This document shows positions 1,430-15,281 of a DNA stretch of 15,337 nt, one piece after another (within the stretch, counting starts at the first letter, position 1; every line of letters begins with the position of its first letter). Origin of the DNA: Naegleria gruberi (lineage: Eukaryota); NCBI GenBank assembly GCA_000004985.1, contig GG738973.1; one strand, written 5' to 3'. Under the pieces are notes generated by a model, which worked only from the letters and a program-made list of their open reading frames with translations, did not search any database and was not told where the DNA came from. The position numbers and the translations under genes are program-made.

Positions 1430-1938
1430 CAAGAAGTACTACTCTCAACACTTCAAGATGATTCAAATGGTCAGACTGCAACTGCACATGAAATAAATAT
1501 GAATTTCGGTTGATATTTTAATAGCAGATATATGAATGGTAAAATTACCAGCTCTATTGAGTGAGTTGGTCTGTATCTATGGTTAAGGGATTGAGCGATG
1601 ATCATTGATCTTTGATACAGAAAGAGTCTTAACAATGATTGAGAACAAATTTCCAAACCCTCTGATTCGTCAAATATGAATACTTCACCAATCAAAATAT
1701 TGAATTCTTCCATTCAAATTTTTAGTAACTTATCTATTGCTTCCCATACGTTCTAAATTTGCTCAATTTGAATGATTTTAAGAATGATTGAAATGCGCTC
1801 ATTTATCTTCTGAATAGTATTAAAAGATAAAAACTCAATGATGTTGGTTCGTACCCGTAATCAATTACTAATAAAGAGTTGTTTCTTTGAAATATCTGAA
1901 TCGTCCAATGAACATGACTCCACACAATAGTAATTTAG

Positions 1939-4900
1939 NNNNNNNNNNNNNNNNNNNNNNNNNNNNNNNNNNNNNNNNNNNNNNNNNNNNNNNNNNNNNN
2001 NNNNNNNNNNNNNNNNNNNNNNNNNNNNNNNNNNNNNNNNNNNNNNNNNNNNNNNNNNNNNNNNNNNNNNNNNNNNNNNNNNNNNNNNNNNNNNNNNNNN
2101 NNNNNNNNNNNNNNNNNNNNNNNNNNNNNNNNNNNNNNNNNNNNNNNNNNNNNNNNNNNNNNNNNNNNNNNNNNNNNNNNNNNNNNNNNNNNNNNNNNNN
2201 NNNNNNNNNNNNNNNNNNNNNNNNNNNNNNNNNNNNNNNNNNNNNNNNNNNNNNNNNNNNNNNNNNNNNNNNNNNNNNNNNNNNNNNNNNNNNNNNNNNN
2301 NNNNNNNNNNNNNNNNNNNNNNNNNNNNNNNNNNNNNNNNNNNNNNNNNNNNNNNNNNNNNNNNNNNNNNNNNNNNNNNNNNNNNNNNNNNNNNNNNNNN
2401 NNNNNNNNNNNNNNNNNNNNNNNNNNNNNNNNNNNNNNNNNNNNNNNNNNNNNNNNNNNNNNNNNNNNNNNNNNNNNNNNNNNNNNNNNNNNNNNNNNNN
2501 NNNNNNNNNNNNNNNNNNNNNNNNNNNNNNNNNNNNNNNNNNNNNNNNNNNNNNNNNNNNNNNNNNNNNNNNNNNNNNNNNNNNNNNNNNNNNNNNNNNN
2601 NNNNNNNNNNNNNNNNNNNNNNNNNNNNNNNNNNNNNNNNNNNNNNNNNNNNNNNNNNNNNNNNNNNNNNNNNNNNNNNNNNNNNNNNNNNNNNNNNNNN
2701 NNNNNNNNNNNNNNNNNNNNNNNNNNNNNNNNNNNNNNNNNNNNNNNNNNNNNNNNNNNNNNNNNNNNNNNNNNNNNNNNNNNNNNNNNNNNNNNNNNNN
2801 NNNNNNNNNNNNNNNNNNNNNNNNNNNNNNNNNNNNNNNNNNNNNNNNNNNNNNNNNNNNNNNNNNNNNNNNNNNNNNNNNNNNNNNNNNNNNNNNNNNN
2901 NNNNNNNNNNNNNNNNNNNNNNNNNNNNNNNNNNNNNNNNNNNNNNNNNNNNNNNNNNNNNNNNNNNNNNNNNNNNNNNNNNNNNNNNNNNNNNNNNNNN
3001 NNNNNNNNNNNNNNNNNNNNNNNNNNNNNNNNNNNNNNNNNNNNNNNNNNNNNNNNNNNNNNNNNNNNNNNNNNNNNNNNNNNNNNNNNNNNNNNNNNNN
3101 NNNNNNNNNNNNNNNNNNNNNNNNNNNNNNNNNNNNNNNNNNNNNNNNNNNNNNNNNNNNNNNNNNNNNNNNNNNNNNNNNNNNNNNNNNNNNNNNNNNN
3201 NNNNNNNNNNNNNNNNNNNNNNNNNNNNNNNNNNNNNNNNNNNNNNNNNNNNNNNNNNNNNNNNNNNNNNNNNNNNNNNNNNNNNNNNNNNNNNNNNNNN
3301 NNNNNNNNNNNNNNNNNNNNNNNNNNNNNNNNNNNNNNNNNNNNNNNNNNNNNNNNNNNNNNNNNNNNNNNNNNNNNNNNNNNNNNNNNNNNNNNNNNNN
3401 NNNNNNNNNNNNNNNNNNNNNNNNNNNNNNNNNNNNNNNNNNNNNNNNNNNNNNNNNNNNNNNNNNNNNNNNNNNNNNNNNNNNNNNNNNNNNNNNNNNN
3501 NNNNNNNNNNNNNNNNNNNNNNNNNNNNNNNNNNNNNNNNNNNNNNNNNNNNNNNNNNNNNNNNNNNNNNNNNNNNNNNNNNNNNNNNNNNNNNNNNNNN
3601 NNNNNNNNNNNNNNNNNNNNNNNNNNNNNNNNNNNNNNNNNNNNNNNNNNNNNNNNNNNNNNNNNNNNNNNNNNNNNNNNNNNNNNNNNNNNNNNNNNNN
3701 NNNNNNNNNNNNNNNNNNNNNNNNNNNNNNNNNNNNNNNNNNNNNNNNNNNNNNNNNNNNNNNNNNNNNNNNNNNNNNNNNNNNNNNNNNNNNNNNNNNN
3801 NNNNNNNNNNNNNNNNNNNNNNNNNNNNNNNNNNNNNNNNNNNNNNNNNNNNNNNNNNNNNNNNNNNNNNNNNNNNNNNNNNNNNNNNNNNNNNNNNNNN
3901 NNNNNNNNNNNNNNNNNNNNNNNNNNNNNNNNNNNNNNNNNNNNNNNNNNNNNNNNNNNNNNNNNNNNNNNNNNNNNNNNNNNNNNNNNNNNNNNNNNNN
4001 NNNNNNNNNNNNNNNNNNNNNNNNNNNNNNNNNNNNNNNNNNNNNNNNNNNNNNNNNNNNNNNNNNNNNNNNNNNNNNNNNNNNNNNNNNNNNNNNNNNN
4101 NNNNNNNNNNNNNNNNNNNNNNNNNNNNNNNNNNNNNNNNNNNNNNNNNNNNNNNNNNNNNNNNNNNNNNNNNNNNNNNNNNNNNNNNNNNNNNNNNNNN
4201 NNNNNNNNNNNNNNNNNNNNNNNNNNNNNNNNNNNNNNNNNNNNNNNNNNNNNNNNNNNNNNNNNNNNNNNNNNNNNNNNNNNNNNNNNNNNNNNNNNNN
4301 NNNNNNNNNNNNNNNNNNNNNNNNNNNNNNNNNNNNNNNNNNNNNNNNNNNNNNNNNNNNNNNNNNNNNNNNNNNNNNNNNNNNNNNNNNNNNNNNNNNN
4401 NNNNNNNNNNNNNNNNNNNNNNNNNNNNNNNNNNNNNNNNNNNNNNNNNNNNNNNNNNNNNNNNNNNNNNNNNNNNNNNNNNNNNNNNNNNNNNNNNNNN
4501 NNNNNNNNNNNNNNNNNNNNNNNNNNNNNNNNNNNNNNNNNNNNNNNNNNNNNNNNNNNNNNNNNNNNNNNNNNNNNNNNNNNNNNNNNNNNNNNNNNNN
4601 NNNNNNNNNNNNNNNNNNNNNNNNNNNNNNNNNNNNNNNNNNNNNNNNNNNNNNNNNNNNNNNNNNNNNNNNNNNNNNNNNNNNNNNNNNNNNNNNNNNN
4701 NNNNNNNNNNNNNNNNNNNNNNNNNNNNNNNNNNNNNNNNNNNNNNNNNNNNNNNNNNNNNNNNNNNNNNNNNNNNNNNNNNNNNNNNNNNNNNNNNNNN
4801 NNNNNNNNNNNNNNNNNNNNNNNNNNNNNNNNNNNNNNNNNNNNNNNNNNNNNNNNNNNNNNNNNNNNNNNNNNNNNNNNNNNNNNNNNNNNNNNNNNNN

Positions 4901-6386
4901 NNNNNNNNNNNNNNNNNNNNNNNNNNNNNNNNNNNNNNNNNNNNNNNNNNNNNNNNNNNNNNNNNNNNNNNNNNNNNNNNNNNNNNNNNNNNNNNNNNNN
5001 NNNNNNNNNNNNNNNNNNNNNNNNNNNNNNNNNNNNNNNNNNNNNNNNNNNNNNNNNNNNNNNNNNNNNNNNNNNNNNNNNNNNNNNNNNNNNNNNNNNN
5101 NNNNNNNNNNNNNNNNNNNNNNNNNNNNNNNNNNNNNNNNNNNNNNNNNNNNNNNNNNNNNNNNNNNNNNNNNNNNNNNNNNNNNNNNNNNNNNNNNNNN
5201 NNNNNNNNNNNNNNNNNNNNNNNNNNNNNNNNNNNNNNNNNNNNNNNNNNNNNNNNNNNNNNNNNNNNNNNNNNNNNNNNNNNNNNNNNNNNNNNNNNNN
5301 NNNNNNNNNNNNNNNNNNNNNNNNNNNNNNNNNNNNNNNNNNNNNNNNNNNNNNNNNNNNNNNNNNNNNNNNNNNNNNNNNNNNNNNNNNNNNNNNNNNN
5401 NNNNNNNNNNNNNNNNNNNNNNNNNNNNNNNNNNNNNNNNNNNNNNNNNNNNNNNNNNNNNNNNNNNNNNNNNNNNNNNNNNNNNNNNNNNNNNNNNNNN
5501 NNNNNNNNNNNNNNNNNNNNNNNNNNNNNNNNNNNNNNNNNNNNNNNNNNNNNNNNNNNNNNNNNNNNNNNNNNNNNNNNNNNNNNNNNNNNNNNNNNNN
5601 NNNNNNNNNNNNNNNNNNNNNNNNNNNNNNNNNNNNNNNNNNNNNNNNNNNNNNNNNNNNNNNNNNNNNNNNNNNNNNNNNNNNNNNNNNNNNNNNNNNN
5701 NNNNNNNNNNNNNNNNNNNNNNNNNNNNNNNNNNNNNNNNNNNNNNNNNNNNNNNNNNNNNNNNNNNNNNNNNNNNNNNNNNNNNNNNNNNNNNNNNNNN
5801 NNNNNNNNNNNNNNNNNNNNNNNNNNNNNNNNNNNNNNNNNNNNNNNNNNNNNNNNNNNNNNNNNNNNNNNNNNNNNNNNNNNNNNNNNNNNNNNNNNNN
5901 NNNNNNNNNNNNNNNNNNNNNNNNNNNNNNNNNNNNNNNNNNNNNNNNNNNNNNNNNNNNNNNNNNNNNNNNNNNNNNNNNNNNNNNNNNNNNNNNNNNN
6001 NNNNNNNNNNNNNNNNNNNNNNNNNNNNNNNNNNNNNNNNNNNNNNNNNNNNNNNNNNNNNNNNNNNNNNNNNNNNNNNNNNNNNNNNNNNNNNNNNNNN
6101 NNNNNNNNNNNNNNNNNNNNNNNNNNNNNNNNNNNNNNNNNNNNNNNNNNNNNNNNNNNNNNNNNNNNNNNNNNNNNNNNNNNNNNNNNNNNNNNNNNNN
6201 NNNNNNNNNNNNNNNNNNNNNNNNNNNNNNNNNNNNNNNNNNNNNNNNNNNNNNNNNNNNNNNNNNNNNNNNNNNNNNNNNNNNNNNNNNNNNNNNNNNN
6301 NNNNNNNNNNNNNNNNNNNNNNNNNNNNNNNNNNNNNNNNNNNNNNNNNNNNNNNNNNNNNNNNNNNNNNNNNNNNNNNNNNNNNN
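1939..6386. other. Run of 4,448 N (scaffold gap or hard-masked sequence).
   Basis: Uninterrupted n characters. The ORFs in the provided track that span it are X-translation artefacts. Confidence 0.99.
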
Positions 6387-6512
6387 TGTGGCACTAAAAC
6401 ACCACCATTTGCAATCCGCTAATGTCAATGCAATGAATAGAGGAAAAATAGAAAGCATTGATATCCCAACAATCTTACTATGAAATGAAGATTTCTTTTG
6501 TTTAGACTTGGC

Positions 6513-6674
6513 TTAATTAAACTTGAAGAAACTCATTACATAATGAACTGCACCAAGTATGGTGCCACTCAAGATATTCACATACGATCCAATTTGACTT
6601 AGATTAGAATTGAAAATGGCTCCATAATCACCAGTTGAATAATCAGTTTTCAAAAAGAAAAAGTAGATTGACAT
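6513..6674 (-). CDS. Possible small ORF or terminal exon encoding a hydrophobic C-terminal segment. Weak.
   Basis: The minus-strand ATG at 6674-6672 opens a 53-aa ORF (MSIYFFFLKTDYSTGDYGAIFNSNLSQIGSYVNILSGTILGAVHYVMSFFKFN*) with TAA at 6515-6513. The frame is open upstream to a TAA at 6812-6810 (99 codons in total). A polypyrimidine-AG motif (ttttcatttcag) lies just 5' of the ATG, around 6685-6695. The ORF is too short for the supplied track, and I recognise no homology. Confidence 0.15.
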   Translation of the reverse strand: MSIYFFFLKTDYSTGDYGAIFNSNLSQIGSYVNILSGTILGAVHYVMSFFKFN

Positions 6675-7030
6675 AACTATGCCTATAACTGAAATGAAAA
6701 CATGAGGATAATTCTCCTGCCCATTTTTTTTGATATCTTTCTCTTCTATTAATAGTAGAGATTTGGAGTTACTAGTATTAGAAAATATTATGCTTTTAAA
6801 TGATTCTTCTTAATGAAATTTATTCAAAATATTGTTTGTAATATTGTACTTTACAATATTGAGCCAATGGTAGGTCTAAATATGTGTTCGTAATCATAGT
6901 AATGCGACAGCCCATTGTATTTGGAAGTATTTGCATGAAGTGATAACATTCTTAAAAAAAACGAAATGAATGTATGTTGATGCTCTGTAATTATTAGTTT
7001 GAAGACTAACACCCCATTCTCGTTGTTATT

Positions 7031-7133
7031 TGATGATCATCTTTTGATATATTGGTGGATGATGAATATTTGTGATTTTTAATATGTGATGATATTTTGT
7101 GTGGATGACGACGGCTAATCATCAATAATCATC
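7031..7133. promoter_or_regulatory. Cluster of (T)GATGA motifs in both orientations, 100-200 bp upstream of the secreted-protein gene.
   Basis: tgatga at 7031-7036. gatgatga at 7058-7065. tgatga at 7087-7092. gatga at 7104-7108. tcatca at 7119-7124 and tcatc at 7129-7133 are the reverse-complement forms. That is six or more copies in ~100 bp of AT-rich intergenic DNA. Function is inferred only from position. Confidence 0.2.
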
Positions 7134-7229
7134 TTTATCATAATGGAATAATTATCTTCTATTAATATGAATAATAATATTTACATGCTATCATCTCATT
7201 ATTAACTTCTAACATGTATTATTGCTTTC

Positions 7230-7316
7230 ATGAAAATTATAACAAAACAGCCTAGAAATATTTGCCTCGTTCTCCTCCTTCTCATTGTTGCTCTCGTAGT
7301 AGCTCCATCATACCAA
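7230..7316 (+). other. Predicted signal peptide of the secreted protein, about 26-29 aa.
   Basis: A basic n-region (KQPR) is followed by a 16-residue hydrophobic h-region (NICLVLLLLIVALVVA) and a small polar c-region (PSYQ). The exact cleavage site is not determinable by eye. Confidence 0.55.
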
Positions 7317-7862
7317 TTGTCTCTCTCACCAGAACTTCGTGCCACTTGTTTGGCTGCCATTCAAAGCTATGATAAGTGTACCTTCTATACACAATGTTTG
7401 GAAAAGATCAAGCCTTGTGGTCCTAATGGTTATGCTCTTGGATATGGTTACAAGTATTGTTCTAAATTCTTCTCTGATGTTAATAGTGGAGCTTACAAGA
7501 GTGAATATGCTCAAAAGTGGGTTTCTTCAACTGGTCACTGTTTGCAAAAGTTCTTGATGCAAAATGTTGTTGAAAAGTTGTTGTCTAATACTGGATCTGA
7601 ATGGAATTGTGAACGTATCATTGATGCTAGCTTTAATTCCCATCCTGGATGTTATACTGATTCCATCTCACCTATTGATGGTCAAAAGTATAGTATTTGT
7701 AAGCTTAGAAATGTTTTTGATGTCAAGACTGTTTTGATGACTGTCGATGCTAAGGACTTGTTGACTGCTAGATCTATGAAGCAAATTGTTGGTGTCTTGA
7801 AGAATTGTATGTCTGATGTCTTGTCTTTGGATGAAGTCAATGAATTGAATGATTACCTTTAA
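7230..7862 (+). CDS. Secreted cysteine-rich protein, 210 aa, with a signal peptide and stanniocalcin-like cysteine spacing.
   Basis: ATG at 7230 to TAA at 7860-7862, uninterrupted. Strong yeast-like codon bias (ttg, aag, gct, tct, ggt, aga) with no CTG codons. The N-terminus MKIITKQPR-NICLVLLLLIVALVVA-PSYQ has the n-region, h-region and c-region of a signal peptide. The mature part has 10 Cys with spacings 9,5,6,13,26,22,13,15,35. Human STC1 is 8,4,5,8,23,15,13,6,34. Shared local motifs include RATCL/VVRCL, QCLEK/ACLEN, YCSKFF/ICKSFL, ERIIDA/QRMIAE and GCYTD/ECYSK. The STC1 sequence is recalled from memory. Confidence 0.8.
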   Translation: MKIITKQPRNICLVLLLLIVALVVAPSYQLSLSPELRATCLAAIQSYDKCTFYTQCLEKIKPCGPNGYALGYGYKYCSKFFSDVNSGAYKSEYAQKWVSSTGHCLQKFLMQNVVEKLLSNTGSEWNCERIIDASFNSHPGCYTDSISPIDGQKYSICKLRNVFDVKTVLMTVDAKDLLTARSMKQIVGVLKNCMSDVLSLDEVNELNDYL

Positions 7863-8081
7863 ATTATTTTCCAATTAATTAATTATATTAAATAAATATT
7901 AATTTATTACTACATTTAATACTACGTAGTATGAGAATCATGATGTTATTGAACAAGAACAATTAAGAAGTAGTAACAATTAATTGGTGATGGTGATAGA
8001 AAATTCTCTCTTCCACGTAAGTGCCAGCTAATACAATCCAAAAATTATCATCACAACAATAAAAATTAATTATAAAAAAAT

Positions 8082-8618
8082 ATGAGTGCTTCTACTTCAT
8101 CACATTCAACTGCTCCAATTAAAACCTTCTCATCTGAACATCAGGATATGATCCATGATGCTCAAGCTGATTACTACGGAAAGAGATTGGCCACTTGTTC
8201 AAGTGATGCTACAATTAGAATTTTTGATTTGGCTCCAAGTAATTCTGAGGAACCAAAGTTGGTGGATACTCTCATCGGTCATGAAGGTCCAGTCTGGCAA
8301 GTTAGTTGGGCTCATCCACAATTTGGATCGATAATTGCCAGTTGTTCCTATGATCATAGAGTTATTATTTGGAAGGAAAATCAACAAACTCACAAATTTA
8401 CTAAAGTTTTTGAATATAGACTTGAGAGTAGCGTAAATTCAATCTCTTGGGCTCCTCACGAACATGGACTTCATTTGGCTAGTGCAAGCTCCGACTCACA
8501 AATTACATTCTTCTCCTACGATGAACAAAGCAATAATTGGAAGGTTTCTAATATTAGAGATGCTCACAAAACTGGATGTAACTCTGTTTGTTGGGCTCCT
8601 GCATCACACACTGGTGCT
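8082..8618 (+). CDS. SEC13: SEC13 orthologue (WD40 protein of the COPII coat and Nup84/Nup107 complex). Only the N-terminal 179 codons are present; the rest is lost in the N run.
   Basis: ATG at 8082 in an A-rich context (aaaaaaatATGagt). The translation is [50 protein letters not shown]...[36 protein letters not shown]...[22 protein letters not shown]...GCNSVCWAP. It matches the conserved SEC13 blocks [51 protein letters not shown] and GCN.V.WAP, as recalled for the yeast and human proteins. The ORF is open to the gap edge at 8618. Confidence 0.92.
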
Positions 8619-11600
8619 NNNNNNNNNNNNNNNNNNNNNNNNNNNNNNNNNNNNNNNNNNNNNNNNNNNNNNNNNNNNNNNNNNNNNNNNNNNNNNNNNN
8701 NNNNNNNNNNNNNNNNNNNNNNNNNNNNNNNNNNNNNNNNNNNNNNNNNNNNNNNNNNNNNNNNNNNNNNNNNNNNNNNNNNNNNNNNNNNNNNNNNNNN
8801 NNNNNNNNNNNNNNNNNNNNNNNNNNNNNNNNNNNNNNNNNNNNNNNNNNNNNNNNNNNNNNNNNNNNNNNNNNNNNNNNNNNNNNNNNNNNNNNNNNNN
8901 NNNNNNNNNNNNNNNNNNNNNNNNNNNNNNNNNNNNNNNNNNNNNNNNNNNNNNNNNNNNNNNNNNNNNNNNNNNNNNNNNNNNNNNNNNNNNNNNNNNN
9001 NNNNNNNNNNNNNNNNNNNNNNNNNNNNNNNNNNNNNNNNNNNNNNNNNNNNNNNNNNNNNNNNNNNNNNNNNNNNNNNNNNNNNNNNNNNNNNNNNNNN
9101 NNNNNNNNNNNNNNNNNNNNNNNNNNNNNNNNNNNNNNNNNNNNNNNNNNNNNNNNNNNNNNNNNNNNNNNNNNNNNNNNNNNNNNNNNNNNNNNNNNNN
9201 NNNNNNNNNNNNNNNNNNNNNNNNNNNNNNNNNNNNNNNNNNNNNNNNNNNNNNNNNNNNNNNNNNNNNNNNNNNNNNNNNNNNNNNNNNNNNNNNNNNN
9301 NNNNNNNNNNNNNNNNNNNNNNNNNNNNNNNNNNNNNNNNNNNNNNNNNNNNNNNNNNNNNNNNNNNNNNNNNNNNNNNNNNNNNNNNNNNNNNNNNNNN
9401 NNNNNNNNNNNNNNNNNNNNNNNNNNNNNNNNNNNNNNNNNNNNNNNNNNNNNNNNNNNNNNNNNNNNNNNNNNNNNNNNNNNNNNNNNNNNNNNNNNNN
9501 NNNNNNNNNNNNNNNNNNNNNNNNNNNNNNNNNNNNNNNNNNNNNNNNNNNNNNNNNNNNNNNNNNNNNNNNNNNNNNNNNNNNNNNNNNNNNNNNNNNN
9601 NNNNNNNNNNNNNNNNNNNNNNNNNNNNNNNNNNNNNNNNNNNNNNNNNNNNNNNNNNNNNNNNNNNNNNNNNNNNNNNNNNNNNNNNNNNNNNNNNNNN
9701 NNNNNNNNNNNNNNNNNNNNNNNNNNNNNNNNNNNNNNNNNNNNNNNNNNNNNNNNNNNNNNNNNNNNNNNNNNNNNNNNNNNNNNNNNNNNNNNNNNNN
9801 NNNNNNNNNNNNNNNNNNNNNNNNNNNNNNNNNNNNNNNNNNNNNNNNNNNNNNNNNNNNNNNNNNNNNNNNNNNNNNNNNNNNNNNNNNNNNNNNNNNN
9901 NNNNNNNNNNNNNNNNNNNNNNNNNNNNNNNNNNNNNNNNNNNNNNNNNNNNNNNNNNNNNNNNNNNNNNNNNNNNNNNNNNNNNNNNNNNNNNNNNNNN
10001 NNNNNNNNNNNNNNNNNNNNNNNNNNNNNNNNNNNNNNNNNNNNNNNNNNNNNNNNNNNNNNNNNNNNNNNNNNNNNNNNNNNNNNNNNNNNNNNNNNNN
10101 NNNNNNNNNNNNNNNNNNNNNNNNNNNNNNNNNNNNNNNNNNNNNNNNNNNNNNNNNNNNNNNNNNNNNNNNNNNNNNNNNNNNNNNNNNNNNNNNNNNN
10201 NNNNNNNNNNNNNNNNNNNNNNNNNNNNNNNNNNNNNNNNNNNNNNNNNNNNNNNNNNNNNNNNNNNNNNNNNNNNNNNNNNNNNNNNNNNNNNNNNNNN
10301 NNNNNNNNNNNNNNNNNNNNNNNNNNNNNNNNNNNNNNNNNNNNNNNNNNNNNNNNNNNNNNNNNNNNNNNNNNNNNNNNNNNNNNNNNNNNNNNNNNNN
10401 NNNNNNNNNNNNNNNNNNNNNNNNNNNNNNNNNNNNNNNNNNNNNNNNNNNNNNNNNNNNNNNNNNNNNNNNNNNNNNNNNNNNNNNNNNNNNNNNNNNN
10501 NNNNNNNNNNNNNNNNNNNNNNNNNNNNNNNNNNNNNNNNNNNNNNNNNNNNNNNNNNNNNNNNNNNNNNNNNNNNNNNNNNNNNNNNNNNNNNNNNNNN
10601 NNNNNNNNNNNNNNNNNNNNNNNNNNNNNNNNNNNNNNNNNNNNNNNNNNNNNNNNNNNNNNNNNNNNNNNNNNNNNNNNNNNNNNNNNNNNNNNNNNNN
10701 NNNNNNNNNNNNNNNNNNNNNNNNNNNNNNNNNNNNNNNNNNNNNNNNNNNNNNNNNNNNNNNNNNNNNNNNNNNNNNNNNNNNNNNNNNNNNNNNNNNN
10801 NNNNNNNNNNNNNNNNNNNNNNNNNNNNNNNNNNNNNNNNNNNNNNNNNNNNNNNNNNNNNNNNNNNNNNNNNNNNNNNNNNNNNNNNNNNNNNNNNNNN
10901 NNNNNNNNNNNNNNNNNNNNNNNNNNNNNNNNNNNNNNNNNNNNNNNNNNNNNNNNNNNNNNNNNNNNNNNNNNNNNNNNNNNNNNNNNNNNNNNNNNNN
11001 NNNNNNNNNNNNNNNNNNNNNNNNNNNNNNNNNNNNNNNNNNNNNNNNNNNNNNNNNNNNNNNNNNNNNNNNNNNNNNNNNNNNNNNNNNNNNNNNNNNN
11101 NNNNNNNNNNNNNNNNNNNNNNNNNNNNNNNNNNNNNNNNNNNNNNNNNNNNNNNNNNNNNNNNNNNNNNNNNNNNNNNNNNNNNNNNNNNNNNNNNNNN
11201 NNNNNNNNNNNNNNNNNNNNNNNNNNNNNNNNNNNNNNNNNNNNNNNNNNNNNNNNNNNNNNNNNNNNNNNNNNNNNNNNNNNNNNNNNNNNNNNNNNNN
11301 NNNNNNNNNNNNNNNNNNNNNNNNNNNNNNNNNNNNNNNNNNNNNNNNNNNNNNNNNNNNNNNNNNNNNNNNNNNNNNNNNNNNNNNNNNNNNNNNNNNN
11401 NNNNNNNNNNNNNNNNNNNNNNNNNNNNNNNNNNNNNNNNNNNNNNNNNNNNNNNNNNNNNNNNNNNNNNNNNNNNNNNNNNNNNNNNNNNNNNNNNNNN
11501 NNNNNNNNNNNNNNNNNNNNNNNNNNNNNNNNNNNNNNNNNNNNNNNNNNNNNNNNNNNNNNNNNNNNNNNNNNNNNNNNNNNNNNNNNNNNNNNNNNNN

Positions 11601-12832
11601 NNNNNNNNNNNNNNNNNNNNNNNNNNNNNNNNNNNNNNNNNNNNNNNNNNNNNNNNNNNNNNNNNNNNNNNNNNNNNNNNNNNNNNNNNNNNNNNNNNNN
11701 NNNNNNNNNNNNNNNNNNNNNNNNNNNNNNNNNNNNNNNNNNNNNNNNNNNNNNNNNNNNNNNNNNNNNNNNNNNNNNNNNNNNNNNNNNNNNNNNNNNN
11801 NNNNNNNNNNNNNNNNNNNNNNNNNNNNNNNNNNNNNNNNNNNNNNNNNNNNNNNNNNNNNNNNNNNNNNNNNNNNNNNNNNNNNNNNNNNNNNNNNNNN
11901 NNNNNNNNNNNNNNNNNNNNNNNNNNNNNNNNNNNNNNNNNNNNNNNNNNNNNNNNNNNNNNNNNNNNNNNNNNNNNNNNNNNNNNNNNNNNNNNNNNNN
12001 NNNNNNNNNNNNNNNNNNNNNNNNNNNNNNNNNNNNNNNNNNNNNNNNNNNNNNNNNNNNNNNNNNNNNNNNNNNNNNNNNNNNNNNNNNNNNNNNNNNN
12101 NNNNNNNNNNNNNNNNNNNNNNNNNNNNNNNNNNNNNNNNNNNNNNNNNNNNNNNNNNNNNNNNNNNNNNNNNNNNNNNNNNNNNNNNNNNNNNNNNNNN
12201 NNNNNNNNNNNNNNNNNNNNNNNNNNNNNNNNNNNNNNNNNNNNNNNNNNNNNNNNNNNNNNNNNNNNNNNNNNNNNNNNNNNNNNNNNNNNNNNNNNNN
12301 NNNNNNNNNNNNNNNNNNNNNNNNNNNNNNNNNNNNNNNNNNNNNNNNNNNNNNNNNNNNNNNNNNNNNNNNNNNNNNNNNNNNNNNNNNNNNNNNNNNN
12401 NNNNNNNNNNNNNNNNNNNNNNNNNNNNNNNNNNNNNNNNNNNNNNNNNNNNNNNNNNNNNNNNNNNNNNNNNNNNNNNNNNNNNNNNNNNNNNNNNNNN
12501 NNNNNNNNNNNNNNNNNNNNNNNNNNNNNNNNNNNNNNNNNNNNNNNNNNNNNNNNNNNNNNNNNNNNNNNNNNNNNNNNNNNNNNNNNNNNNNNNNNNN
12601 NNNNNNNNNNNNNNNNNNNNNNNNNNNNNNNNNNNNNNNNNNNNNNNNNNNNNNNNNNNNNNNNNNNNNNNNNNNNNNNNNNNNNNNNNNNNNNNNNNNN
12701 NNNNNNNNNNNNNNNNNNNNNNNNNNNNNNNNNNNNNNNNNNNNNNNNNNNNNNNNNNNNNNNNNNNNNNNNNNNNNNNNNNNNNNNNNNNNNNNNNNNN
12801 NNNNNNNNNNNNNNNNNNNNNNNNNNNNNNNN
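8619..12832. other. Run of 4,214 N (scaffold gap or hard-masked sequence). It swallows the 3' ~0.4 kb of SEC13 plus ~3.8 kb of unknown sequence.
   Basis: Uninterrupted n characters. The ORFs in the track that span it are artefacts. Confidence 0.99.
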
Positions 12833-12853: not shown

Positions 12854-13369
12854 TTATTCTTCATCGTACAAGTGAGAGAATTCAATAACATCATCCAAAT
12901 CATCCACATCAACCATTCTCTTCTGATAAATACCATCTTTTGGATGATTTCTATGCCACTTTTTATGATTTCTTCCTTCAGATCTGAATCTTCCATTTCT
13001 AGTCTGTTTTTTGAAAGCTCTTTCTTCATGATGAATTGCATTCCATTCCACCTTATTAAATCCCTTCTCAGTATTAAACTTGTGAAAGGAATTCAAAAGA
13101 ACAGGTTCTGCTCTCTTTATATTCGCTCTCTCTGCAACCCAATCACATCGTTGATGATTTTCCTTATACTGACGATCATAGAGTTCCAATTCAGCAGTAT
13201 AATTCCTCTCCAATCGATGAGCTCCGGCAGAATATTCCAAATTACTTGATGATTTTTGTTTGTATTTGGAGCAACCTCCGTGATAGGATGTATCACTAGT
13301 CTTTGCTACACGAGGTGTTTGCCATTTAACTTTACCACTTCTAGCCAATGAGCCGTGAATAACTGCCAT
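12854..13369 (-). CDS. 171-aa protein with a ribosomal protein eS30 (RPS30/FAU)-like N-terminal motif fused to a non-ribosomal basic/acidic extension.
   Basis: Minus-strand ATG at 13369-13367 and TAA at 12856-12854, uninterrupted. The 5' leader is A-rich (aaacaaagaacaatATG). The N-terminus is MAVIHGSLARSGKVKWQTPRVAK. The canonical eS30 is (M)[22 protein letters not shown] in yeast and [21 protein letters not shown] in human FAU, so ~17 of 20 residues are identical. From residue ~24 onward (TSDTSYHGGCSKYKQ...RNGRFRSEGRNHKKWHRNHPKDGIYQKRMVDVDDLDDVIEFSHLYDEE) there is no resemblance to eS30. The extension keeps the AGA/TTG/AAG codon bias and a 148-codon open frame, so it is coding and not an intron. 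Confidence 0.7.
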   Translation of the reverse strand: MAVIHGSLARSGKVKWQTPRVAKTSDTSYHGGCSKYKQKSSSNLEYSAGAHRLERNYTAELELYDRQYKENHQRCDWVAERANIKRAEPVLLNSFHKFNTEKGFNKVEWNAIHHEERAFKKQTRNGRFRSEGRNHKKWHRNHPKDGIYQKRMVDVDDLDDVIEFSHLYDEE

Positions 13370-14201: not shown

Positions 14202-15281
14202 TTATTTTCTTGTTTTCAGTCTCAATTCCAGAGGGAGAGAATTGACATCAACCTTTGAACAGCCACCAACATGAATTGTTTGCAACTTTGAACATGCTTT
14301 GGCAATAGTAACAAGTCCCTTATTAGTAATATCACAAAATCTTACATCCAATTCTTCCAAATTAGTTAAAGAACTCAACTCGGTTACCCCCTTGTCATGA
14401 ATTTGATCCTCTCCTAAATTCATTACATAGAGCTTTCTCAAAGATTTCACATTTCCAATCATGGCGCAACCAGCATCACCAAAAGCTGTGTTTTGTTTCA
14501 AATCCAAAATTTCCAGCTTTGATAAATTAGCCAATTTTCCAAGAGAATTTAATGAGTTACCAATGATTGAATCAGCATAAAGATGTTTAAGATTGGAGAA
14601 AGTACTGATCGTATTGAAAACGTCTTCGCTCATTGTCGCCCTACTCAGATTCAAAACTTGAATAGTATGATTATTTTTGAGGCCTAAGAATTCCTCTCCA
14701 GATATTGCATAACCCTCAAGTTTCAGAGTGTGTAATGTCTGTATTGTGTTAAGTGCTGTAAAGAAAATATATGCATTTGCCTTCTTCTCGTGTCCAAAAT
14801 GGTTTCTATCAAATTTACAATCCAAAACTTGAAGATTTTTCCAATTAGCAACACAATCTCCAACGTCACTAATGAAATTACGACTTTCAATTCTAATAAT
14901 TTCCAAATTGGGCGTGTGAGTAACAAACTCGCTAGTTATGAATGTAGTCGGTCCACAATATTCCAAATGTTTCAAAGCATAATTGGTTTCTGCAAAAACT
15001 TTTGCAAAATTCTCATCCAAATAGTAAGATCTTGAATTTGTCATCTTTGTCCTGAGAACACTTCTCCCAAAGCAAATTTTCTCCAGATTGTTAAATTTAC
15101 GTACGGCCAATGTTATTAAAGACTCAAATGTTTCAATTCCTTCAATATTGAGCTCGGTTATTTTGGTACAAAGAGAATTGTCAGTTGTAAAGAGTTCTAA
15201 TTTCTCAACAAGATTGTTCTCAATTTCATTTTCATCAGCTAATTGGATAGTTCTCTTAGGGAATGAAAAAAGNGTAATGGC
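14202..15281 (-). CDS. Cysteine-containing leucine-rich-repeat protein (F-box/LRR, AMN1/GRR1-like LRR class) with an unresolved N-terminus.
   Basis: The minus-strand frame is open from the TAA at 15284-15282 to the TAA at 14204-14202. Successive ~24-26-residue LxxLxLxxCxxIT/SDxG(L) repeats are present, for example NLSKLEILDLKQNTAFGDAGCAMIG, LRKLYVMNLGEDQIHDKGVTEL, LTNLEELDVRFCDITNKGLVTIAKACSKLQTIHVGGCSKV. The first in-frame ATG is at 15044-15042. LRR-like sequence (…LVEKLELFTTDNSLCTKITELNIEGIETFESLITLAVRKFNNLEKI…) continues upstream with no ATG, and the track's 15110 start is a TTG. An ambiguous base at 15273 lies in this stretch. Codon bias is consistent with the other genes. Confidence 0.8.
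   Translation of the reverse strand, partial: AIXLFSFPKRTIQLADENEIENNLVEKLELFTTDNSLCTKITELNIEGIETFESLITLAVRKFNNLEKICFGRSVLRTKMTNSRSYYLDENFAKVFAETNYALKHLEYCGPTTFITSEFVTHTPNLEIIRIESRNFISDVGDCVANWKNLQVLDCKFDRNHFGHEKKANAYIFFTALNTIQTLHTLKLEGYAISGEEFLGLKNNHTIQVLNLSRATMSEDVFNTISTFSNLKHLYADSIIGNSLNSLGKLANLSKLEILDLKQNTAFGDAGCAMIGNVKSLRKLYVMNLGEDQIHDKGVTELSSLTNLEELDVRFCDITNKGLVTIAKACSKLQTIHVGGCSKVDVNSLPLELRLKTRK

Follow-up and report, generated by a model that had tools for sequence, protein, structure and literature searches.

The window analysed here, 15,337 nucleotides of Naegleria gruberi DNA, carries on its plus strand an open reading frame (ORF) at 7230-7862 that a sequence-only reading had singled out as stanniocalcin (STC)-like. 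The ORF is present as that reading described it, runs from ATG to TAA and encodes 210 amino acids, and its product is identical (100%) to the database protein XP_002668700.1 (EFC35956.1; P0001), labelled 'predicted protein [Naegleria gruberi]'. The guess that the source was yeast-like or fungal was wrong in detail, as the organism is a heterolobosean amoeboflagellate. The 219-bp gap (7863-8081) to a downstream SEC13 gene is as claimed, and this neighbour matches human SEC13 with an E value of 1.8e-59. Only one STC-like gene was found in N. gruberi, in two 99%-identical copies. The twin, XP_002680178.1 on a 665-kb scaffold, shares 209 of 210 residues with XP_002668700.1, and it is this protein identity, and nothing else, that suggests an allelic duplicate. 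A literature search on the accessions and locus tags of the XP_002668700.1 gene returned zero papers. The features of the locus are as follows.

6966-6971, plus strand: proposed two-codon first exon (ATG AAT), with a GTATGT 5′ splice site directly after it
6972-7250, plus strand: proposed intron of 279 nt (GTATGT...AAACAG), from a comparison of four Naegleria-type loci
7055-7064, plus strand: intronic motif GTGGATGATG, copy 1, a GTGGATGAYG match
7101-7110, plus strand: intronic motif GTGGATGACG, copy 2, common to the N. lovaniensis and L002 introns
7214-7255, plus strand: 13-codon out-of-frame 'uORF' with its stop at 7253-7255; the string exists and would be intronic if the revised model holds
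7230-7862, plus strand: STC-like protein gene NAEGRDRAFT_76379, annotated as a single-exon ORF of 210 aa, the span including the stop codon
7230-7316, plus strand: putative signal-peptide coding part, residues 1-29, from hydropathy (core 11-25) and the orthologue leaders
7251-7862, plus strand: exon 2 of the revised model, giving a precursor that would read MN followed by PRNICLVLLLLIVALVVAPSYQ... (205 aa)
7347-7808, plus strand: STC core from Cys40 to Cys193, with ten conserved cysteines and a predicted all-helical bundle
7422-7457, plus strand: clade-specific segment NGYALGYGYKY between Cys4 and Cys5, five residues longer than in vertebrate STC1
7629-7658, plus strand: motif specific to the clade, SFNSHPGCYT (AFDSHPxCYT in the family consensus); His138 and Tyr142 are invariant
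8082-8618, plus strand: SEC13, the downstream neighbour (context, outside the feature), with 179 N-terminal aa readable and then masked Ns

Comparison with related loci suggests that the annotated start is not the one used. The orthologues N. lovaniensis C9374_008232, P0002 and P0004 are 58-72% identical to the N. gruberi protein, conserve all ten cysteines and have the two-codon first exon and following intron that are proposed for N. gruberi; the N. lovaniensis annotation includes this exon. Each of the four Naegleria-type loci has a single match to the pattern ATGAA[GT]GT[AG][AT]G[CT], always upstream of the STC-like gene. The AAACAG acceptor ending at 7250 provides the only in-frame AG after an in-frame stop at 7203-7205. 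The most likely gene model therefore has a first exon of two codons, conserved among these loci, and an intron of 279 nt, and on that model the precursor probably begins MN-PRNICLV and not MKIITKQPRNICLV. In N. gruberi, translation from the annotated ATG at 7230 would keep the same frame and yield a usable leader, and the mature protein is the same under both models. Intron length ranges from 74 to 279 nt across the Naegleria-type loci. The neighbourhood is shared in part: a SEC13-like WD40 gene lies immediately downstream at the P0004 locus, as in N. gruberi, whereas the downstream neighbours in N. lovaniensis and L002 are TPR and pirin genes and not SEC13.

The revised model also changes how the region ahead of the annotated start would be read. 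A uORF and a TGATGA cluster had both been assigned to the leader, and the strings themselves are real: the ATG at 7214 and its stop exist, and TGATGA occurs at 7031, 7060 and 7087 on the plus strand and at 7119 on the minus strand. Under the revised exon-intron model, however, both most likely lie within the conserved 5′ intron, together with the GTGGATGAYG motif pair and the annotated ATG. TGATGA is marginally enriched in the whole window (17 copies against 9.6 expected, a count reached by 5 of 200 shuffles), while GTGGATGAYG has two matches against 0.01 expected. An intron-encoded snoRNA or other structured RNA in this region was considered and rejected, as there were no Rfam matches and folding energies were no better than those of shuffled sequences (z of +1.30, -0.58 and -1.54). 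Reading by eye, no CUGA box D was visible in the N. gruberi or L002 introns. On a separate reading, the conserved micro-exon intron with its private GTGGATGAYG motif may be a regulatory or RNA element.

The proposal that the product is STC-like holds at the level of profiles and of cysteine register, but fails in a direct HMMER comparison with the Pfam family PF03298. Using hmmscan, XP_002668700.1 and its three Naegleria orthologues gave no PF03298 match even at E<=10 and no STC match in NCBIfam, and XP_002668700.1 itself does not reach the PF03298 gathering score of 23 bits. Searches of PDB sequences with XP_002668700.1 (phmmer) and with a four-sequence Naegleria profile (hmmsearch) returned no STC chain, only chance matches at E>0.5 (fatty acid synthase thioesterase and NDUFS5). 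The Naegleria-only four-sequence alignment was too shallow (Neff 1.46), and with it hhalign against vertebrate STC1 found nothing. Word-indexed homologue searches reached only Naegleria and a few others, so that an exhaustive search was required. Among 1.84 billion proteins, the Naegleria-only profile then matched 1,381 at E<=1e-3 and 484 at E<=1e-10.

The relatives recovered in this way provide the link to stanniocalcin. PF03298 matches 20 of the 92 aligned family members, and all ten relatives checked individually pass its gathering score (30-62 bits; for example, P0058 at 61.7). Against PDB, the 92-sequence family profile matches chains of human Stanniocalcin-2 (STC2) only, at an E value of 1.9e-6, and against 16 vertebrate STC1 sequences hhalign aligns 140 columns (probability 93.6%, E value 2.1e-7) and keeps the ten cysteines all in register. 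A profile built from only the 44 members that the vertebrate STC1 HMM does not detect still matches STC1 (E 2e-5). Because the Naegleria-only profile misses STC in both PDB and hhalign, family membership rests on transitive and profile evidence; this evidence supports XP_002668700.1 as a true, distant stanniocalcin-family member in a non-metazoan.

The cysteine scaffold agrees closely with this assignment. XP_002668700.1 has cysteines at residues 12, 40, 50, 56, 63, 77, 104, 127, 141, 157 and 193; C12 falls inside the hydrophobic leader, leaving exactly ten in the mature part. Their spacings (9,5,6,13,26,22,13,15,35) are those given in the sequence-only reading, and the human STC1 spacings set beside them there (8,4,5,8,23,15,13,6,34) proved right on a sequence 97% identical to the database STC1. 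Of the local matches it listed, CLEK/CLEN, YCSKFF/ICKSFL and GCY/ECY share columns in the profile alignment, whereas ERIIDA/QRMIAE is off by three residues. In the hhalign alignment C40/50/56/63/77/104/127/141/157/193 pair with STC1 C45/54/59/65/74/98/114/128/135/170, and the ten positions are 94-100% conserved among the 92 sequences. Transferring the human STC1 disulfide map (PMC2744999) through this register suggests a 1-3, 2-5, 4-7, 6-8, 9-10 connectivity, in which five disulfides (C40-C56, C50-C77, C63-C127, C104-C141 and C157-C193) would lock the helical bundle.

Structure prediction points the same way. From four aligned sequences AlphaFold produced no usable model (pLDDT 41.7); it was replaced by an AF2 model from the 92-sequence alignment, with a pLDDT of 91.9, a pTM of 0.81 and ten helices in the mature part. 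The modelled architecture corresponds to the compact bundle of about 11 antiparallel α-helices that characterizes the STC fold. Foldseek ranked STC2 first for this model, but at a non-significant E value of 0.87 and a TM score of 0.40-0.48; the STC2 fold has been reported to be without structural homologues (PMC9579167).

The gene had been presented as a possible non-metazoan STC-like gene. The homology is supported, but it is not a discovery, because N. gruberi, with other protists, is listed among the holders of STC homologues by Roch and Sherwood (2011, Genome Biol Evol 3:284; PMC5654410). Our profile matches include Branchiostoma, the nematode 'Protein W01A8.8', Ceratiomyxa, Andalucia, a chytrid and an ascomycete. 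Across the family as a whole, homologues occur in a jakobid, a ciliate, Ancoracysta, fungi and amoebozoans, and family members are found in bacterial metagenome-assembled genomes (MAGs) of Bdellovibrionia and Cloacimonadota. The N. gruberi protein belongs with amphioxus (STCc type), nematodes, fungi, amoebozoans, jakobids and ciliates in the non-vertebrate branch. Contamination or a recent transfer from an animal is rejected, because the gene with its conserved intron is present in four Naegleria-type genomes and a homologue exists in the discoban Andalucia.

According to Roch and Sherwood, an extra hydrophobic six-residue region between Cys4 and Cys5 typifies non-vertebrate STCs (PMC5654410). 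XP_002668700.1 has this region: its C63-GPNGYALGYGYKY-C77 segment appears in the hhalign alignment as a five-residue insertion relative to STC1, and G67, Y68, Y72, G73 and Y76 are 90-100% conserved in the 92 sequences. The non-vertebrate STCs of that paper have a signal peptide, which is putative in the Naegleria protein, and share with it a size in the range of 150-300 aa or so, the ten cysteines in STC register, the extra Cys4-Cys5 hydrophobic segment (here YALGYG) and a low identity to vertebrate STCs; we saw no material difference from the STCc, W01A8.8, fungal, slime-mould and amoeboflagellate proteins described there.

The differences from vertebrate STCs are more substantial. Identity to human STC2 (PDB 8a7d/8a7e/7y5q) and STC1 is about 17-19%. 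The eleventh, dimerisation cysteine of vertebrate STCs (STC1 C202, STC2 C211) is absent, as is an equivalent of STC2 C120, which bonds covalently to PAPP-A. The whole sequence has no N-X-S/T sequon where vertebrate STCs have a conserved N-glycosylation site, and there is no long disordered C-terminal tail. Conversely, vertebrate STCs lack the five-residue Cys4-Cys5 insertion and the AFDSHPxCY motif. The analysis shows homology to STCs, ten cysteines in register, an all-helical fold of STC type, a hydrophobic leader and conservation of the gene in four Naegleria-type genomes. The reading that we hold with considerable confidence is that the gene is the N. gruberi member of the STC family, on its non-vertebrate branch, and that its product would be secreted and would bind a putative extracellular or cell-surface partner. 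The predicted partner-binding surface would carry the clade-specific invariant residues, namely E58, Y53 and Y68, those of the GYAxGYGxKYC segment and the AFDSHPxCY motif, and Q185. More tentatively, and with a rather small chance of being right, the invariant polar and aromatic residues E58, Y53, Y68, H138 and Y142 (both in AFDSHPxCY) and Q185, which are absent from vertebrate STCs, could form a ligand-, metal- or substrate-binding site serving an ancestral STC activity unrelated to PAPP-A inhibition. To our knowledge, stanniocalcin has no agreed receptor.

What such a partner might be can be weighed against known STC activities. Roch and Sherwood proposed a common eukaryotic STC function, such as the binding of a calcium channel, by which the protein could modulate the movement of calcium or phosphate at the cell surface. 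Such a role would fit the classical physiology of STC1 in the fish gill and reports, summarised in that paper, that STC1 blocks L-type channels in cardiomyocytes (PMC5654410). We consider this role unlikely in Naegleria: amoeboflagellates are without four-domain voltage-dependent calcium channels according to the legend of Fig. 4 in the same paper, no STC is known to have an established receptor or channel as its partner, and nothing in the window bears on the question.

Secretion, as part of the preferred reading, depends on the N-terminus, which looks like a signal peptide. In XP_002668700.1 the basic residues K2, K6 and R9 precede a 15-residue hydrophobic core (residues 11-25; mean Kyte-Doolittle 3.65), and hydrophobic leaders are also present in the Naegleria orthologues. 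The precursor would enter the ER via a signal peptide of about 24-29 residues, with a putative cleavage site between residues 25 and 30, and the mature product would leave the cell as a ~20-kDa monomer without N-glycosylation. The C-terminus, read from the sequence, is NDYL and carries no KDEL/HDEL-type retention signal. Around residues 25-29 (VVAPSYQ) the -1/-3 positions conform only moderately to the canonical pattern, and this would also suit an uncleaved signal anchor, with the STC domain of a type II membrane protein displayed on the cell surface or facing the lumen of an organelle. We regard that arrangement as quite improbable, given that the core of just ~15 residues is short for a transmembrane helix, that the orthologues carry canonical ...TQA|A cleavage motifs and that Roch and Sherwood report predicted signal peptides throughout the STC family (PMC5654410).

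Assuming a secreted protein that binds an extracellular or cell-surface partner, the vertebrate target can be set aside, since no PAPP-A homologue is found outside animals (PMC11925022). A secreted functional equivalent of STC1 and STC2 could still inhibit, with high affinity, a metalloproteinase of the pappalysin type (M43) from Naegleria itself or from bacterial prey, with such inhibition as the ancestral activity. Inhibition of PAPP-A and PAPP-A2 is the only mechanistically established STC activity (PMC9579167, PMC11925022), bacteria and archaea have 'lower' pappalysins of a single domain, and STC family members occur in bacterial MAGs, predatory or other. However, the domains by which STC2 engages PAPP-A, M2 (with the C732-C120 disulfide) and LNR3/C, are missing from lower pappalysins; besides the missing C120 equivalent, the position aligned with STC2 K104 is non-basic in the family consensus; and Kjeldsen and Oxvig deem even an invertebrate STC-PAPP-A interaction unlikely. 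Together with the restriction of PAPP-A to animals, these points make a protease inhibitor of this kind very unlikely. Our literature search found no functional study of any non-metazoan STC.

Convergence, by which an unrelated cysteine-rich helical family would merely share the ten-cysteine spacing, is exceedingly improbable and largely refuted: the low identity to STC and the lack of a direct Pfam or PDB sequence match for XP_002668700.1 and the Naegleria-only profile speak for it, but they are opposed by an unbroken chain of significant matches to bona fide STCs, by the register of all ten cysteines and by STC2 being the unique top structural match, with a fold that is otherwise an orphan.

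Our analysis leaves the picture of STC evolution unchanged. An N. gruberi homologue was already published in 2011; the gene-model detail is new. It adds independent confirmation, from profiles and a predicted fold, of a Naegleria STC whose earlier basis was mainly the cysteine pattern, for a protein that public databases list as a 'predicted protein' with no domain. It also adds a list of clade-specific invariant residues, which could serve as targets for mutagenesis, and a probable correction of the gene model. The sole mechanistically established STC activity that we found requires a protease reported only from animals, and homologues spread this widely imply that stanniocalcin has an older function. 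If the residues absent from vertebrate STCs do form a binding site of the kind suggested above, Naegleria could serve to uncover the ancestral activity of stanniocalcin.

The subject gene encodes a 210-residue protein related to stanniocalcin (STC):

7230-7862, plus strand: STC-like open reading frame, ATG to TAA, 210 aa

Its product is identical to XP_002668700.1 / EFC35956.1 / UniProt D2W4P4 (NAEGRDRAFT_76379), annotated merely as 'predicted protein [Naegleria gruberi]'. A second database entry, XP_002680178.1 (NAEGRDRAFT_64411), lies on a 665-kb scaffold and differs at one residue (S86R); our STC searches of N. gruberi found one gene, as these two entries, and no other. The small 15,337-bp scaffold probably represents the same region as the 665-kb scaffold a second time, as an uncollapsed copy, either allelic or duplicated. 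The protein begins with a basic n-region followed by a hydrophobic core of 15 residues (mean hydropathy 3.65), has cysteines at positions 12, 40, 50, 56, 63, 77, 104, 127, 141, 157 and 193, and is devoid of N-X-S/T sequons, while the mature form, counted from residue 30, is ~20.3 kDa with a pI of 6.9. The sequence-only reading had given the spacings of the ten post-leader cysteines as 9,5,6,13,26,22,13,15,35 and those of human STC1 as 8,4,5,8,23,15,13,6,34, and both series are correct, the latter in a sequence with 97% identity to the representative of the database STC1 cluster. Of the sources it suggested (fungal, protist-like or an unusual metazoan), the first and last fail, as N. gruberi is a heterolobosean amoeboflagellate.

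The protein alone does not reveal its family. The check proposed earlier, against the Pfam stanniocalcin family PF03298, gave no hmmscan match even at E<=10, and the same was true of the three Naegleria-type orthologues. Among all PDB sequences, phmmer with the N. gruberi protein found no STC, and a profile built on the four Naegleria-type proteins found no STC in the PDB and no match to vertebrate STC1. An exhaustive run of the Naegleria-only profile over 1.84 billion representative proteins gave 1,381 matches at E<=1e-3, 484 of them with E<=1e-10, and 92 of the matched proteins were aligned (alignment A2). PF03298 is matched by 20 of the 92, and each of the ten members checked singly passes the Pfam gathering score (30-62 bits; cut-off 23); the amphioxus protein P0058 clears this score and matches the Naegleria profile at E 9.8e-21. 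Searched with the A2 profile, all PDB sequences yielded three entries, all human stanniocalcin-2 (E 1.9e-6), and nothing else. Alignment of A2 with 16 vertebrate STC1 sequences by hhalign gave a probability of 93.6% (E 2.1e-7, 140 columns), with all ten Naegleria cysteines aligned to the corresponding STC1 cysteines. As a guard against circularity, the profile was rebuilt from 44 members individually undetectable by a vertebrate STC1 HMM; it still matches vertebrate STC1 across the ten cysteines (E 2e-5, database of 177,635 sequences), and convergence as the source of the resemblance is essentially excluded. The link to STC thus becomes visible once the family is populated with intermediates, unlike with the protein or the four-sequence profile alone.

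The STC2 match, the STC1 alignment and the relatives that pass PF03298 together support the STC-family interpretation made from the sequence. This interpretation is already published: Roch & Sherwood (Genome Biol Evol 2011, PMC5654410) sought STC homologues by relaxed BLAST and HMMs and named N. gruberi among the protists that have one. An STC-like gene outside Metazoa therefore holds as an observation but not as a novelty. In the literature searched, no paper after that study was found on Naegleria together with stanniocalcin, or on XP_002668700.1 or XP_002680178.1. Our analysis of the protein adds no new biology; it confirms the STC assignment through profile statistics and by setting the protein beside the STC2 structure, which was solved in 2022. 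AlphaFold2 returned a pLDDT of 41.7 with a shallow alignment and, run without templates, 91.9 (pTM 0.81) with A2; in the A2 model ten helices follow the leader. Those who solved the STC2 structure saw its fold in no other protein (PMC9579167), so the fold match to STC2 is specific. The disulfides of human STC1 are C45-C59, C54-C74, C65-C114, C98-C128 and C135-C170 (PMC2744999), and by register the Naegleria disulfides would be C40-C56, C50-C77, C63-C127, C104-C141 and C157-C193.

Within the family, the N. gruberi protein is a member of the non-vertebrate STC branch. Between Cys4 and Cys5 it carries an extra hydrophobic segment, GYALGYG, a five-residue insertion relative to STC1 in hhalign, and a hydrophobic segment at this place was highlighted by Roch & Sherwood as typical of newly found homologues (PMC5654410). 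In contrast to vertebrate STCs, the Naegleria protein lacks the dimerisation cysteine and the glycosylation site, as well as an equivalent of C120 of STC2, and the motifs GYAxGYGxKYC and AFDSHPxCY have no vertebrate counterpart. Besides cysteines, Y53, E58, G64, G67, Y68, Y72, G73, Y76, F80, W97, L105, Q106, L109, F135, H138, Y142 and Q185 are 88-100% conserved in the 92 relatives. Named relatives include animals (Branchiostoma, a nematode 'W01A8.8' protein, the dipteran Pseudolycoriella) and other eukaryotes (Ceratiomyxa of the Amoebozoa, Andalucia godoyi, a chytrid, an ascomycete, the ciliate Muranothrix, Ancoracysta). A. godoyi is a jakobid and, like Naegleria, a discoban. Bacterial metagenome-assembled genomes also contribute STC-like proteins, P0012 (Cloacimonadota, PCJ15011.1) and P0019 (Bdellovibrionia, MFZ9595676.1), echoing a Bdellovibrio protein that was one of the few bacterial hits of Roch & Sherwood, who set it aside as possible horizontal transfer (PMC5654410). 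Such bacterial proteins may reflect transfer, in either direction, or contamination. Outside Naegleria, the Naegleria profile matches P0005 (Pseudolycoriella hygida KAJ6643668.1, 357 aa) best, at E 9.6e-44; this protein has two STC-type stretches, matches PF03298 at 35 bits and lies on a 155-Mb scaffold. Arthropods have been reported to be without STC genes, so P0005 could be genuinely encoded by the insect, a product of transfer, or contamination. Some relatives are multidomain: Ceratiomyxa P0048 has a weak granulin-like N-terminus, amphioxus P0046 and P0058, which go by the name 'Lysozyme g/LYG2', contain two STC stretches, and the unnamed proteins P0020 and P0028 (466-793 aa) carry the STC domain C-terminally.

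The gene and its leader are conserved in four Naegleria-type genomes, and their comparison bears on the gene model. The annotated N. lovaniensis orthologue reads ATG AAG, an intron (GTATGT...AATAG), then TCT TCC..., giving MK-SSVLLV.... The same arrangement lies upstream of the N. gruberi open reading frame, with ATG AAT and then GTATGT at 6966-6977, and the sole in-frame AG past the in-frame stop at 7203-7205 is 7249-7250. The pattern ATGAA[GT]GT[AG][AT]G[CT] occurs once per locus in 4/4 loci (34 kb, both strands), in each case with the hydrophobic core 74-279 nt further downstream and an in-frame YAG acceptor present.

Probable two-codon first exon (ATG AAK) with its 74-279-nt intron:
6966-7250: N. 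gruberi window
5001-5220: N. lovaniensis locus L001
656-928: Naegleria-type locus L002
420-499: Naegleria-type locus L003, an ENA contig

Exon 2 of N. lovaniensis and of L002 comes directly after a stop codon, so in these two a complete leader requires splicing. For N. gruberi the revised precursor is probably MN-PRNICLVLLLLIVALVVAPSYQ..., its leader up to the conserved ...SYQ / ...SYTQA motif being 24 residues, as in N. lovaniensis. The database model (start 7230) probably begins inside the intron, with its first seven residues, MKIITKQ, wrong; the mature protein is identical under both models. Under the revised model the annotated ATG at 7230, the uORF (7214-7255) and the TGATGA cluster (7031-7124) would all be intronic; the last two were rightly spotted from the sequence, but the four-locus comparison would remove them from the leader.

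The intron also harbors the motif GTGGATGAYG, present twice in the window (7055-7064, 7101-7110) against 0.01 copies expected, and within the loci compared it is confined to this intron, in three species:

5022-5031, plus strand: GTGGATGAYG, same intron, N. lovaniensis L001
5194-5203, minus strand: GTGGATGAYG, same intron, N. lovaniensis L001
705-714: GTGGATGAYG, same intron, L002

The short L003 intron does not contain it. In the minimum-energy folds of N. lovaniensis and L002, the motif pairs with a complementary stretch near the intron 3′ end, a pairing absent from the N. gruberi fold, and 0/3 introns had better folding energy than shuffled controls. A C/D snoRNA was rejected, as no CUGA box D is visible in the N. 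gruberi or L002 intron sequence and Rfam gave no match for the intron. This conserved intronic motif may act as a regulatory site or as a pairing element at the intron end.

SEC13 lies 219 bp downstream of the STC-like gene, as the initial reading had it (E 1.8e-59 against human SEC13), and two long N runs (1939-6386, 8619-12832) mask neighboring genes. Gene order around the STC-like gene varies within the genus:

1245-2210, L003: WD40 gene resembling SEC13, downstream of the STC-like gene, as in N. gruberi, where SEC13 is confirmed
5906-8346, N. lovaniensis L001: TPR and pirin genes downstream of the STC-like gene
1644-4485, L002: TPR and pirin genes downstream of the STC-like gene

Elsewhere in the window, a minus-strand frame at 12854-13369 has a ribosomal protein S30 signature at residues 4-25 (PF04758, 32 bits) followed by unrelated sequence; it probably represents exon 1 of an eS30 gene together with intron sequence into which the frame continues. 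Another at 14202-15110 (minus strand) encodes a 302-aa leucine-rich-repeat protein (LRR_4, LRR_6 and LRR_14 matches).

Our literature search turned up no functional studies of STCs outside Metazoa. We rank first a role as a secreted binding protein. Metalloprotease inhibition is a minor rival, modeled on STC2, which inhibits the metalloproteinase PAPP-A through a disulfide between C120 and the M2 domain and contacts with the LNR3/C domain (PMC9579167). However, no PAPP-A homologues were found beyond the animals, and the 'lower' pappalysins of microbes consist of the catalytic domain alone (PMC11925022); for these reasons the vertebrate mechanism does not transfer to the Naegleria protein. Modulation of ion flux, along the lines of the calcium-channel idea of Roch & Sherwood, would be another minor rival, but the same authors state that amoeboflagellates are without four-domain voltage-dependent calcium channels (PMC5654410). 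As a secreted binding protein, the Naegleria precursor would enter the ER, fold oxidatively into a five-disulfide helical bundle and be released as a monomer, which may bind an extracellular or surface partner through its clade-specific conserved surface.
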